Positions 1 through 4,735 of a DNA stretch of 4,735 bases are shown here, in pieces. The translations under genes were made by a program, and so were the position numbers. Position 1 is the stretch's first letter; each line of letters starts with the position of its first letter. Origin of the DNA: a virus; the UHGV virus genome UHGV-1398520; one strand, 5' to 3'. The notes beneath the pieces are model-generated. The model did no database searches, was not told where the DNA came from, and saw only the letters and a program-made list of their open reading frames with translations.

Positions 1-90
1 AGCACTTCGCATCACTCAGACATGATTTAACATAATATACATTATGCGCACCAATGGTAAGGATGGCGGGAACTGGCGTTACCGGTGCCG

Positions 91-324
91 TCATTGGTCA
101 CAGACCGTAATCCACTGGCCCAGGACGTCTTTCAGGCAATGTTGGCATAAATCCAGTTTTAAGCGATTACTGTCACCAAAAATTGAACCGTATCCAGCTA
201 AGTGATTAACAGACAGAAACTCATTGAACTCAATGTCATCTACCACCGTCTTCGCATGGCGACCACAGCGATCGCAGGTCTTCGCACATAACATTACAGT
301 ATCGCTGGATGTGAAAAATTGCAT
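91..324 (-). CDS. hypothetical small protein (77 aa) with zinc-ribbon-like CxxC...CxxC motif
   Basis: ATG at 322-324 and TGA at 91-93. Strong SD-like GAGGAG about 5-6 nt upstream on the minus strand (reverse complement of roughly 330-337). Cys pairs CDRC and CQHC are about 40 residues apart, plus two further Cys. No family recognised from memory. GC content (about 44% by hand count) is similar to the phage genes. Confidence 0.5.
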   Translation of the reverse strand: MQFFTSSDTVMLCAKTCDRCGRHAKTVVDDIEFNEFLSVNHLAGYGSIFGDSNRLKLDLCQHCLKDVLGQWITVCDQ

Positions 325-395
325 TTTATCTCCTCGTAATGCTGCCGCGCCGAATCAGCAATAACGCTAAAAAAACAGAATTGTTCGGCTTGGCC

Positions 396-440
396 AACCC
401 CTGACACTAACAAAAGCAAGTTTTGTCATTGTCCGGGGTT
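396..440. promoter_or_regulatory. imperfect composite palindrome between the two small ORFs (candidate operator or weak terminator)
   Basis: Outer arms aacccctgaca (396-406) and tgtccggggtt (430-440) pair with one mismatch; inner arms acaaaa (410-415) and ttttgt (421-426) pair around loop gcaag. It lies 2 nt 3' of the 102-aa ORF stop on the minus strand. An A7 run (T7 on minus) at 369-375 is about 20 nt away, so it is not a canonical intrinsic terminator. Confidence 0.3.
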
Positions 441-441
441 A

Positions 442-750
442 TCATATAAACCAATAGACCGTCCTTACGCCATTCTGGTTATCAATAACATAGCCGCATT
501 GTTTCCTTAAAAATTCTTCTGCTAAATCAATGGCTTTTACAGAAATCTCATAAGAAGGAAGTAAAGTGTATCCTTTCCCTTCACTGGCAGCTGCTTTGAT
601 CGCATCCAGAGTATTATCAATCAGTAACAGAGCAAGTGATGCTTCATTTACCTGAGCCGAAGAACTTCTGGCTGCAAGTGTCATTGTTTTTGCTTCTTCC
701 GCTGTAATCGTTCGTTCTGCCAGAGCAGATAAAATCCCATAAGAATCCAT
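442..750 (-). CDS. hypothetical protein (102 aa), function unknown
   Basis: ATG at 748-750 and TGA at 442-444. GGGG SD-like element about 6 nt upstream on the minus strand. Co-oriented with the phage genes, 20 nt downstream of the hairpin that follows gene IV. No signal peptide or recognisable motif. GC about 40% by hand count. Confidence 0.5.
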   Translation of the reverse strand: MDSYGILSALAERTITAEEAKTMTLAARSSSAQVNEASLALLLIDNTLDAIKAAASEGKGYTLLPSYEISVKAIDLAEEFLRKQCGYVIDNQNGVRTVYWFI

Positions 751-2092: not shown

Positions 2093-2467
2093 TTACTCCT
2101 GACAGGTAACAGTCTGTAAATAACGGCCTTTTCTAATAACAACACGACAGGCATCTTTAATATCAACGGAATAACCATCTTTAATCAAATCAAAATACTG
2201 ATATTTCATACCTTTTGCATCAACAAACGTAACGGAAACGTCAAAGCCAAGTTGTGAAAAAGAATTAATAGAAAGTCGGGGTAAGTCACTGGACGAATCA
2301 GGCGTTACCGCCCTCGCCTGTTCAGCATAAGCAGATTTAATAGCTGAGATTTCATCAACATTCTTTCCAGACTGGAGCCAGAAACCAAACGCAAGCCCCA
2401 GCGCCAAAAAAGAAAGCATTAATATAAGACGGTTCGATTTGCGAAAATAAATTTTAGTGAGGCGCAT
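2093..2467 (-). CDS. XI: pXI, in-frame internal-initiation product of gene I (C-terminal 124 aa)
   Basis: In-frame ATG at 2465-2467 is Met241 of pI, the same relative position as the pXI start in Ff phages (MRLTKIYFRK here versus MKLTKIY in M13 by recollection). GAGGA lies about 12 nt upstream. It is immediately followed by the transmembrane segment. Inferred by positional homology only. Confidence 0.5.
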   Translation of the reverse strand: MRLTKIYFRKSNRLILMLSFLALGLAFGFWLQSGKNVDEISAIKSAYAEQARAVTPDSSSDLPRLSINSFSQLGFDVSVTFVDAKGMKYQYFDLIKDGYSVDIKDACRVVIRKGRYLQTVTCQE

Positions 2468-3187
2468 ATAATAATTAAATCCTCTGTGAACAGAAAATTG
2501 ACCGTGCGTGATAAATGGTGGCAAAAGCGAAAATGCGCCATGAGGATAATTATCTGTGAACGCTTGTTTGGTATTGTAAGCAGAATAAAGAGATTTTCCT
2601 GTATATATCCATTTATCAACAGTGATTGAATTAACATTATCACCATATTTGACAATGCCAAAGTGTACCTTTGGTAAAGAAAATCTCGCCCCTGAAACCA
2701 AATTCATAATGGAGCCAACAAAAGGAATGTTTAATTTATCTGAACGGCGACAATAAACAACATGCTCAGCAAGCGCCAGACGAGCTTGCTTATCCATTAT
2801 CGAAATATCCTGAATCAAAAATATAATATCCCAGCCTAATTTTCTGGCATGTAAAAACCAGTCAATAACAGGTTGCCTGTCTTTATCACCCCATGAGCGG
2901 GAATTAAACCAAGTACCACATTCATCAAGTACAAGGAGGCCATTACGGGATTCATCGTAAGATGTATTCCCAGTACCAATAGCAAGTAAATCATTTAATG
3001 AAGGTTTGTCAGGAATGCGAATAACGCGCGTTTTTTTCGCATAACGCCCAACCATAGGCATATTATGCAATTTAAGATCAAGATTAGTGGCAACAGGACA
3101 ACCCTTAGCAAGTCTTTCCTGTATTCTGGAAACACTAACAAGTGTCTTGCCTGAGCCTAATTTGCCTGTTACTACATAAACCGCCAT
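2093..3187 (-). CDS. I: filamentous-phage assembly protein pI (Zot-like P-loop NTPase)
   Basis: 364 aa, ATG 3185-3187, TAA 2093-2095. Walker A GKLGSGKT (aa 8-15, nt 3143-3166) and Walker B-like LLVLDE (aa 84-89). Long collinear similarity to M13 gene I protein as I recall it (MAVYVVTGKLGSGKTLVSV..., QDISIMDKQARLALAEHVVYCRR...). Hydrophobic segment LILMLSFLALGLAFGFW matches the pI transmembrane helix. AGGGTGA SD-like element upstream. Confidence 0.9.
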   Translation of the reverse strand: MAVYVVTGKLGSGKTLVSVSRIQERLAKGCPVATNLDLKLHNMPMVGRYAKKTRVIRIPDKPSLNDLLAIGTGNTSYDESRNGLLVLDECGTWFNSRSWGDKDRQPVIDWFLHARKLGWDIIFLIQDISIMDKQARLALAEHVVYCRRSDKLNIPFVGSIMNLVSGARFSLPKVHFGIVKYGDNVNSITVDKWIYTGKSLYSAYNTKQAFTDNYPHGAFSLLPPFITHGQFSVHRGFNYYMRLTKIYFRKSNRLILMLSFLALGLAFGFWLQSGKNVDEISAIKSAYAEQARAVTPDSSSDLPRLSINSFSQLGFDVSVTFVDAKGMKYQYFDLIKDGYSVDIKDACRVVIRKGRYLQTVTCQE

Positions 3188-3529
3188 TTAAATCACCCTG
3201 TTTGCATAATCAAGAAATTTTTGTTTTAAATCGAAAACAAAAACACTGATACGAGTAACCATAATAACGTTAACACACGCCTGAAAATGGTCAGGCAATA
3301 CAGACGCCATTAAATGGGAGAAATCAGCAGGTAAACCGTTATACATGACCTCAGCAAGGTACTGCATTAAAAGCGTAACAGTTGTTGTAATTAATGCGAC
3401 CAATGCAAAGGCAATTAATCCTGTTCTGGTAGCAAGTCGAGCTAAAAAACTCGCCACATAGCCAATAAACAAAGGAACAAGACCAATAAGAAAACGCAAC
3501 AATGCAGGAATACCTAATAATAAAGGCAT
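3188..3529 (-). CDS. VI: minor coat protein pVI
   Basis: 113 aa from ATG 3527-3529; the track M at 3530-3532 is a GTG one codon upstream. TAA 3188-3190 directly abuts the gene I ATG. Hydrophobic small protein MPLLLGIPALLRFL... and C-terminal VFVFDLKQK resemble M13 pVI (MPVLLGIPLLLRFL..., IFIFDVKQK by recollection). GGGGGTGA SD-like element upstream. Confidence 0.85.
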   Translation of the reverse strand: MPLLLGIPALLRFLIGLVPLFIGYVASFLARLATRTGLIAFALVALITTTVTLLMQYLAEVMYNGLPADFSHLMASVLPDHFQACVNVIMVTRISVFVFDLKQKFLDYANRVI

Positions 3530-4694
3530 CACTCACCCCCTTTGCGAAGCAATGAAGTTAAAGAAGTAAAGACATACCAGAACGTAAGGCAATAAAAAAC
3601 CCATGAAAGAACATCTTTAATAGTCAGTAATTTATCGCAACCAATATCAATCTGATAAACCTCTCCGGGAAAATAATAAAATCAGAGCAGCCGTTACCAT
3701 TGGGTAAATTAGGCAGCATAGCACCTTTATTTAAAAATGCTTCCCATAAAGCACCGTGAGAATCCTTTTCAATTCCCAATTCAGAATCAGCTAAAGTAGA
3801 AGCGCCATCTAATTCAGAGTCGCCCTTTCCATAACGAGAATCACCACCTGAAGGGTCAGCAAAACGGCCAGCCCCCCGCGTAAGATTGTTAATGGAATCG
3901 TCAAGACGATTTATATTATTCCTGGTTTGTTCATCGGCATTTTTTTTATCATCTGATGAAGTGTCTTTCTCCGTTAATTTATCATGAATATCGCTGGCTA
4001 TTTTGGGTGAAGCACCTTCGATCGCAGACTGAATATCACCTTTAGAAAGACTGGAACCACTAGAGCCACCGCCAGAACTACCGCCACCGGACTCACCACC
4101 GCCAGACTCACCACCACCGGACTCACCACCACCGGACTCACCACCGCCGGACTCACCACCGCCGGACTCACCACCGCCGGACTCACCACCGCCAGACTCA
4201 CCACCACCATTTTGGGGGGTTGAGGGTTTATCAGAGGGGTCAGCTACAGCACCTGTAGGCTTCCATGTTGCAGCGCAAACAGTACCATCACCCTGACAAA
4301 CAATGACACCAGTAGCCTCATATTCACAGCCGTTATAGTAGATATAGCGACCACCATCATATGAATCAACATTATTAAATACACCTTCTTCTGGCGGCTT
4401 CGCTTCACAAATTTCTTCTGGTGTCGGGTCAGTAGGTTTTTCATCAGGAACAGAACGCTGAATATTACCAACAATATAAGCCGTTAAAGACCAATATTTA
4501 TCCTTCTGCCCTGGTGAATCGCTGTAAGTACAATCGCCAGTAAAAACAAGACGGAATTCAGAATCAGGCCAGATACCCTCATAAGTTGGTTTAATCCGAG
4601 TAAATACACTCTGAGCACTGGATTTAGCACCCTGACAAGCGGAGGCCTGCATAGCAGCATCAATATAGTAAACCGTTATCGGTAATGATTCCAA
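3529..4694 (-). pseudogene. III: gene III (adsorption/minor coat protein pIII) interrupted by a single-base frameshift; N-terminus atypical
   Basis: Frame A (3624-4694) encodes an N1-like domain (EICEAKP...[26 protein letters not shown], aligning to M13 N1 SCLAKP...YEGCLWNATGVVVCTGDETQCYGTW), a (GGGES)8 linker and the start of the C-terminal domain (NKGAM...). The conserved C-terminal anchor is only readable in another frame (3529-3672): [47 protein letters not shown], aligning to M13 ...GKPYEFSIDCDK...YVFSTFANILRNKES. The frame switch is at fwd 3667-3673 (ggg aaaa). The frame-B stop TGA overlaps the gene VI ATG (TGATG). There is no signal peptide; the track start is TTG (4692-4694) with no SD. 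Confidence 0.65.
4050..4208 (-). repeat. tandem 15-bp repeats encoding Gly-rich linker (GGGES)x8-(GGGSS)x2-GSS within gene III
   Basis: Near-identical 15-nt units (ggactcaccaccgcc / agactcaccaccacc on the fwd strand) repeated about 10 times. They translate on the minus strand to GGGES repeats at aa 163-215 of the frame-A product. Confidence 0.9.
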
Positions 4695-4735
4695 CTTATT
4701 GATAGTGTTTTATGTTCAGATAATGCCCGATGACT

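Follow-up and report, generated by a model that had tools for sequence, protein, structure and literature searches.

The closest described systems to the element analyzed here are two filamentous phages, YpfPhi of Yersinia pestis and CUS-1 of Escherichia coli K1, the latter reportedly described by Gonzalez et al. in 2002. Both integrate at dif, form tandem arrays, and have an episomal form, and the genes YPO2280a and YPO2281 of YpfPhi adjoin attR, in the place where CTXphi has ctxAB, with "no predictable functions" (Derbise & Carniel 2014, PMC4266046). The function of these terminal open reading frames (ORFs) was stated there as an open question, for a phage associated with the plague lineage of the third pandemic and with invasive E. 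coli K1 (PMC4266046). Here, we analyzed a 4,735-nt stretch of the virus genome UHGV-1398520 (the window), and in particular the two small ORFs that follow its secretin gene (gene IV) and encode proteins of 102 and 77 amino acids (ORF102 and ORF77). The window very likely represents the right end of a CUS-1/YpfPhi-type prophage integrated at dif, with the two ORFs as its cargo genes. Judging from position, the published description, and UniRef clusters, ORF102 is most probably the homolog of YPO2280a and ORF77 that of YPO2281; the UniRef clusters of both proteins span the Enterobacterales, which is consistent with this equivalence but does not prove it. Because the layout matches the published YpfPhi/CUS-1 map, the two genes are already known, and there is a strong case that the pair, which a preliminary description made from the sequence alone had presented as unknown genes, is a rediscovery of known genes without an assigned function.

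The integration site and the gene order place the window in this phage group. An exact dif site starts 38 nt past the ORF77 stop codon (Table 1), and a dif site also lies 39 to 48 nt after the ORF77 homologs in UM146, Phytobacter, and IMG/VR contigs. The UM146 prophage sits between a fimbrial (fim-like) operon and hipBA. Both UM146 and VL46 have the full order gII-gV-gVII-gVIII-gIII-gVI-gI-gIV, and VL46 has a tandem array, from which the circular order can be read as gII-gV-gVII-gVIII-gIII-gVI-gI-gIV-ORF102-ORF77-attP-(opposite-strand cargo and a 60-aa ORF)-gII. At the copy-to-copy junction in VL46 (L002 16400-16515), two inverted dif-like sites surround a guanine-cytosine (GC)-rich hairpin, and the viral strand of this attP, folded as single-stranded DNA (ssDNA), gives a forked hairpin whose arms are paired and whose center is open (z -8.1). 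This attP is of the CTXphi type; the crossover apparently lies within the shared ACATTATGCGCACC, on the XerC-arm side. A 7,938-bp circular "plasmid" of Salmonella (NZ_CP140410) is this phage in its episomal form, and it carries both ORFs. By analogy with CTXphi, the replication origin probably lies in the intergenic region between gene II and the repressor gene. The preliminary description had overlooked the dif site, the host junction, and the end of an insertion sequence (IS1), and it had compared the locus with the Ff phages; that frame was wrong, since the phage is of the CTXphi/CUS-1 type and the region after gene IV is a cargo slot that ends at attP/dif.

Sequence comparison shows that both ORFs are real genes under strong purifying selection. 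The ratio of nonsynonymous to synonymous substitution rates (dN/dS) was 0.14 for ORF102 (E. coli versus the Salmonella homolog) and 0.06 to 0.18 for ORF77 against diverged homologs, with synonymous sites near saturation in both cases. Each protein also matched a PHROG family without known function (ORF102, phrog_4115, E = 2e-68; ORF77, phrog_5435, E = 4.5e-46), so that homologs and a coding signal, on which the preliminary description had let the status of the ORFs depend, are both present. ORF77 has a strong GAGGAG Shine-Dalgarno sequence, and the ribosome-binding site of ORF102 is a weaker GGGG. The earlier account of two co-oriented ORFs with ATG starts and ribosome-binding sites, 117 nt apart, was correct in its coordinates, and the GC content of positions 91 to 750 (0.424) is, as it had said, like that of the phage genes (0.419).

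Both ORFs belong to the phage genome and not to the host flank, as had also been proposed, because they are present in the tandem copies and in the episomal form; they were found in every tandem prophage copy, in the 7,938-bp circular episome, and in all 10 contexts sampled. The right arm gIV-ORF102-ORF77 was constant in 10 of 10 contexts, and the cargo across attP varied: it could be a Fic/Doc-family toxin of 244 aa, a zinc-binding protein of the ECs_2282 type with two hypothetical proteins, or an ORF of 250 or 230 aa. Of 5,426 complete E. coli genomes, 49 contained the full 783-bp segment with both ORFs at an identity of at least 99.5%, with a median of 2 and a maximum of 16 copies per genome. 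The 16 separate ORF102-ORF77 copies of E. coli EC5502 (NZ_CP092647.1), against this median of 2, suggest either several insertions or a tandem array of great length. In the assembly collection, more than 13,000 indexed blocks contain the exact ORF77 protein, and a tblastn search of the INPHARED phages gave no match. One contig binned as "Candidatus Nanosynbacter" (L010, JARKOR010000214.1) has a 100%-identical E. coli phage end and an exact E. coli dif, and is almost certainly enterobacterial and wrongly binned.

Although the two genes are neighbors in the window, comparison of their occurrence makes it probable that ORF102 and ORF77 are independent modules. A diverged Salmonella relative has an ORF102 homolog (60% identical) right after gene IV, and about 420 nt of unrelated sequence replace ORF77 before dif. 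Inoviruses of Phytobacter, Klebsiella, and IMG/VR (secretins 23 to 29% identical) lack ORF102 and have ORF77 homologs (55 to 79% identical) immediately behind gene IV, often with an exact dif shortly after them, and ORF77 homologs without ORF102 also occur on plasmids. In a Citrobacter youngae remnant (L076 2807-3493), codons 1 to 43 of gene II are fused in frame to codons 36 to 102 of ORF102, with ORF77 intact downstream. The 117-nt spacer between the two genes contains a conserved hairpin and a U-run, and the genes are not tightly coupled. These observations bear on whether ORF102 and ORF77 could be a toxin-first type II toxin-antitoxin (TA) pair like MqsR/MqsA that stabilizes an unstable episome. 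In favor of this, a gene for a ~100-aa protein comes before one for a zinc-ribbon protein, much as in mqsRA, whose antitoxin MqsA carries a zinc domain at its N terminus, and elsewhere the ORF77 domain is found fused to antitoxin-type modules. Addiction would be useful given that YpfPhi episomes are unstable (PMC4266046). However, the genes exist separately, each under purifying selection, the 117-nt gap holds a conserved hairpin, the Citrobacter remnant retains ORF77 beside a truncated ORF102, and neither protein matches a toxin or antitoxin family in Pfam, PHROG, NCBIfam, PADLOC, or PDB, which makes a TA pair highly improbable. The preliminary description had likewise argued against a tight TA pair, and the finding of the genes apart in the Salmonella phage and in other inoviruses bears it out.

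Of the two independent cargo genes, ORF102 has the narrower distribution: it encodes an acidic, apparently cytoplasmic protein restricted to the CUS-1/YpfPhi lineage. The database clusters of ORF102 number about 10 and are all enterobacterial, its homologs always stand directly after gene IV, and the family was not extendable, even by profile search. The protein has an isoelectric point (pI) of 4.7 and, by inspection, no obvious membrane or secretion features; its C-terminal 67 residues are nearly invariant and its N-terminal 35 are variable. Nothing scored above threshold in Pfam, NCBIfam, or PADLOC (a defense library), and there was no match in PDB, where a similarity to the ADP-ribosyltransferase effector Tre1 (E = 0.26) was rejected as chance, the helical overlap being short and the protein too small. 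Proteins annotated as G2P in the 90% cluster of ORF102 were chained in by the Citrobacter deletion chimera and not by homology.

The distribution of ORF77 is far wider. A word-indexed search with ORF77 returned close enterobacterial relatives only, and an exhaustive profile search returned 1,238 clusters at E ≤ 1e-3, with 611 at E ≤ 1e-10. Conservation, fusions, and the structural model were assessed with 150 diverged members of this family. C20, C60, and C63 are invariant, and C17, D18, E35, G44, S47, F49, G50, D51, D58, and Q61 are at least 90% conserved, which gives the family signature CxxC...GYGSxFGD...CxxC. With the 150-sequence alignment, AlphaFold (AF2) modeled ORF77 at a predicted local distance difference test (pLDDT) score of 90.2; a first AF2 model from 7 sequences (pLDDT 64) was discarded in favor of this one. 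The model predicts strands at 14-16/23-25 and 37-42/54-59, among them two short knuckle strands, and a C-terminal helix at 61-71, with the GYGSxFGD loop at the tip of a beta-hairpin. From the conserved CxxC knuckles and the beta-hairpins in this confident model, ORF77 is predicted to be a four-Cys zinc-ribbon protein; the zinc-ribbon-like Cys motif that the preliminary description had noticed is thus retained, its CxxC pair being conserved across the 150 homologs. The family has no model in Pfam or NCBIfam, a PADLOC scan gave nothing above threshold, and a PDB profile search found no sequence relative. Fold searches with the model gave nothing significant, the weak top neighbors being eS26 and the zinc fingers of PARP-1. 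A relationship of ORF77 to the ECs_2282 zinc-binding protein of the other prophage end was rejected (E = 13).

About 40% of the top 150 family members consist of the domain alone, and in the rest it is almost always N-terminal. Its C-terminal partners are Xre_MbcA_ParS_C (PF09722, 8 members, and more by motif), TacA1 (PF08681, 1 member), DUF4926 (2 members), and unassigned tails. The "antitoxin-like" tie of ORF77 is an architectural, domain-level association and not proof of function. Neighboring genes of family members include GmrSD, HigB/HigA, BrnT, GNAT, SIR2, Tn7-like TniQ/TniB, ParA/ParB, and WYL regulators; clustering of these neighbors gave no conserved one, and the surroundings are heterogeneous, as is typical of mobile and defense regions.

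Several individual loci illustrate this variety. On a conjugative-plasmid-like contig with YubE, a methyltransferase, StbA/ParM, UmuDC, and ParB (L006 3962-5156; also L007-L009), an ORF77 homolog with Ser at Cys13, Cys17, and Cys75 stands ahead of an unrelated coiled-coil-like ORF of 77 aa and a GNAT acetyltransferase; the three genes might form one unit. In Proteus terrae pZF2-7kb (L068 2142-5202) and similar 7- to 13-kb Proteus/Providencia plasmids, the ORF77 homolog (55% identical) is divergent to an 844-aa SIR2-family gene; the small plasmid also has a RelE/ParE pair. In four further loci (L035/L036/L041 ~3367-4660 and L127 126-935), a ParS_C/DUF2384-type protein precedes an ORF77-domain protein that ends in ParS_C, and no recognizable toxin was found near this two-gene arrangement. 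At L022 3091-3801, a YggL 50S-ribosome-binding domain is fused to ParS_C beside an ORF77-domain gene and a GmrSD restriction gene, from which it follows that ParS_C is joined to varied N-terminal modules. Finally, a K. pneumoniae IncFIB/FII plasmid (L069 6001-7317) has an ORF77 homolog and, about 1 kb away, a near-perfect Xer site, AGTGCGCATAA-CAAAGA-TTATGTTAAAT, and this locus may be the remnant of an inovirus or of an integrative mobile element exploiting Xer (IMEX) in a plasmid Xer site.

Taken together, the data can be explained, with fair confidence, by two independent cargo genes of a CUS-1/YpfPhi-type prophage. Both ORFs are very likely terminal accessory genes in the slot between the secretin gene and the attachment site; they would form the distal end of the main phage operon, read from the viral plus strand, each behind a strong conserved hairpin. 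ORF77 is a stand-alone copy of a widespread, uncharacterized four-Cys domain of phages, plasmids, transposons, and TA/defense-rich islands, which in longer proteins forms the N-terminal module ahead of antitoxin-type toxin-binding domains. It could then bind a protein partner as a small neutralizer or modulator, with a toxin of the host or a competitor, or a defense factor, as candidate targets. That ORF77 is such a small protein-binding modulator is a tentative proposal drawn from its sequence features. Several points weigh against this account: (i) the function of ORF102 is constrained by none of the data, (ii) the equivalence to YPO2280a/YPO2281 is drawn from layout and description, (iii) the close homolog P0018 has Ser instead of Cys17, (iv) neither RES nor other recognizable toxins stand beside the fusion proteins examined, and (v) the N-terminal module of canonical antitoxins is usually DNA-binding.

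The last point favors a different role, in which ORF77 is a zinc-ribbon DNA-binding regulator, a stand-alone antitoxin N-terminal module acting on phage or host transcription or on attP. The domain takes the N-terminal place of the helix-turn-helix (HTH) or ribbon-helix-helix domains in Xre/ParS- and TacA-type antitoxins, and its weak top structural neighbors, eS26 and the PARP-1 zinc fingers, bind nucleic acid. In contrast, every structural match was insignificant, the family is acidic (median domain pI 4.97; ORF77 pI 5.4, charge -3.3) with conserved residues that are mostly acidic or glycine, and some fusions apparently have a separate HTH (a weak HTH_17 match in L035). Because the domain is acidic and carries an invariant, exposed acidic/glycine GYGSxFGD loop, protein binding seems likelier than DNA binding. 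The preliminary description had named a regulator, a superinfection-exclusion or anti-defense factor, and a host-modulating moron as candidate roles; overall, the evidence argues weakly against a DNA-binding regulator, which we regard as doubtful, and for a protein-binding accessory factor.

A role at the attachment site itself is less probable still. In that case, ORF77 would be a Xer accessory factor, of which XafT of TLCphi is an analog, acting on XerC/XerD at attP/dif to favor integration or block excision. In at least three inovirus lineages (the secretins being 23 to 29% identical), the ORF77 homolog is the gene nearest the Xer site (38 to 193 nt), and the copy on a Klebsiella plasmid has a strong Xer-like site at a distance of about 1 kb. 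However, any gene in a terminal cargo slot is expected near the site, the Salmonella relative integrates at dif without ORF77, distant family members have no Xer sites nearby, and the plasmid loci L006-L009 have none. Xer-like sites stand beside ORF77 homologs in inovirus contexts only, and the linkage was rejected for the wider family. An accessory function in Xer recombination is an improbable explanation for ORF77.

It has also to be considered whether both genes are host-modulating morons like ctxAB and the source of the modest in vivo fitness benefit of YpfPhi/CUS-1. They occupy the same genomic slot as ctxAB, and none of the sampled hosts showed variation in the right arm. YpfPhi has a roughly sevenfold effect on the median lethal dose and CUS-1 an effect in infant rats, and the terminal ORFs were named as candidates (PMC4266046). 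The CUS-1 phenotype, however, stemmed from a mutation in puvA, which encodes a virion protein (PMC4266046). Against such a role, too, inspection of the two small, acidic proteins showed neither a signal peptide nor secretion features, and members of the ORF77 family are distributed among environmental bacteria and non-pathogens, so that we consider it rather unlikely. A bolder version of the favored account, to which we would give about as little credence, is that ORF77 represents an undescribed widespread zinc-ribbon family, a stand-alone sensor/neutralizer module of antitoxin-like proteins, and that dif-integrating inoviruses retain it in the slot next to attP because it disarms host TA or defense systems or tunes Xer recombination at ssDNA entry. 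If true, an anti-defense or Xer-tuning role of ORF77 would explain part of the YpfPhi/CUS-1 fitness effect.

Expression of the two cargo genes may be governed by the hairpins that precede them. Hairpin 1, over the gene IV stop codon, folds as RNA at -46.4 kcal/mol (z -7.2; as ssDNA, z -8.8), and it is kept in the Salmonella phage with a compensatory double change from GGATAGCG/CGCTATCC to GGCTAGCG/CGCTAGCC. Hairpin 2, right after the ORF102 stop, has a z of -3.8 as RNA (for the 117-nt spacer) and of -5.5 as ssDNA, and it too is kept in the Salmonella phage, with a compensatory change of an A-T to a G-C pair and two mismatches repaired. The spacer palindrome reported in the preliminary description, TTGGCCAA, is present but not conserved; the conserved element of the spacer is hairpin 2. 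In a promoter/terminator scan, neither ORF had a sigma-70-like promoter and no canonical terminator emerged; the loops of the hairpins are larger than the scanner allows. We infer that the hairpins attenuate read-through and that expression of both ORFs is low, with hairpin 1 as a candidate terminator/attenuator or ssDNA cis element. Alternatively or additionally, the hairpins might be ssDNA signals, for example a packaging signal.

The latter possibility recalls the Ff phages, in which the packaging-signal hairpin lies directly after gene IV. If the region were an Ff-like non-coding intergenic region with packaging signal and origins, the ORFs would be incidental, and the two very stable, conserved viral-strand hairpins directly after gene IV would be what one expects there. 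However, purifying selection on both ORFs is strong and their synonymous sites are saturated, they have ribosome-binding sites and conserved homologs in other elements, and the hairpins lie between the ORFs and do not run across them. The hairpins may have cis functions, but the notion that the ORFs are incidental was rejected, and we attach next to no probability to it.

All genes of the window are on the minus strand (Table 1), and gene IV, the positional anchor for both ORFs, corresponds to a 421-aa secretin in the UM146 and VL46 annotation. The match to the window starts at position 21 to 25 in some E. coli genomes and at position 1 in others. The prophage copy in the window is defective and cannot make pIII, because gene III carries both the IS1 insertion and a second lesion, a 1-nt deletion relative to UM146 in an A-run at ~3670. 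Gene III also contains, at ~4075-4200, a run of 15-nt repeats that encode (GGGES)n and vary in copy number among genomes, and pIII ranges from 408 to 433 aa among the loci compared.

Table 1. Positions of genes, attachment-site parts, hairpins, and flanking elements in the window, and of the variable-cargo loci in related contigs
Feature	Position	Strand	Basis or remark
Host chromosomal flank past the prophage end	1-24	none	Outside dif
dif site, exact 28 bp, attR-side junction	25-52	minus	Identical to GGTGCGCATAATGTATATTATGTTAAAT
dif sub-parts	XerC arm 42-52; central 36-41; XerD arm 25-35		
ORF77, 77 aa, probable YPO2281 homolog, last phage gene before attP/dif	91-324 (read from 324 to 91)	minus	phrog_5435
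Hairpin 2, ~20-bp imperfect stem-loop right after the ORF102 stop	395-441	minus	Followed by a U-rich run at ~369-375
ORF102, 102 aa, probable YPO2280a homolog	442-750 (read from 750 to 442)	minus	ATG start; phrog_4115
Hairpin 1, 27-bp stem-loop over the gene IV stop codon (820-822)	771-830	minus	Inverted repeat; folding; conservation
Gene IV, secretin, positional anchor for both ORFs	820-2085	minus	Pfam Secretin (E = 6.6e-43), GspD N0, Secretin_N
Gene I/Zot	2093-3187	minus	Pfam Zot
Gene VI	3188-3532	minus	Pfam DUF5455
Gene III fragment	3624-4694	minus	Pfam G3P_pilus-bind/Phage_Coat_A
IS1 end, inserted in gene III	4681-4735		
Variable-cargo loci, downstream of the 60-aa repressor-like ORF	L067 2138-2872; L001 15112-16317; L002 15662-16414; L133 6370-7491; L134 6377-7111		

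As a finding of a genome scan, the pair is ordinary: two hypothetical phage genes that had been described before. What is new here is the membership of the 77-aa protein in a large, uncharacterized zinc-ribbon family of mobile elements; the gene pair itself has been described. The question of what the terminal ORFs do is narrowed, not solved: the two genes appear to be independent modules, and it is ORF77, not ORF102, that recurs among inovirus lineages and on mobile elements of other kinds. The large family of ORF77 is an unnamed zinc-ribbon family that can be folded with confidence and is tied to antitoxin-type architectures, and the conserved hairpins probably gate the expression of both genes.

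With respect to known systems, the ORF77 family resembles the Xre/MbcA/ParS and TacA antitoxins in that its domain is fused N-terminally to PF09722 and, once, to PF08681. Unlike the Xre/MbcA/ParS antitoxins, ORF77 consists of the zinc ribbon only, without PF09722, and no RES or GNAT toxin stands beside it in the phage. MqsA shares with ORF77 the small four-Cys zinc module and a ~100-aa gene upstream, but the PDB profile search gave no sequence match between them, ORF77 has no HTH domain, and its gene is separable from its neighbor. As in the Ff phages (M13/f1/fd), strong viral-strand hairpins stand directly after gene IV; here, in contrast, two selected coding genes occupy the space after gene IV, and a Xer attachment site marks its end. 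The likeness to CTXphi is closer, since ctxAB occupies the same slot after the morphogenesis/secretion module, beside a Xer attachment site, and the attP is likewise made of inverted dif-like sites that fold as ssDNA. The phage of the window nevertheless encodes its own secretin, unlike CTXphi, and cholera toxin has no sequence or structural relation to the ORF products, which are small, acidic, and apparently cytoplasmic. YpfPhi and CUS-1, compared by description, differ from the window in no demonstrated respect and, like it, carry two small ORFs between the secretin gene and attR/dif.

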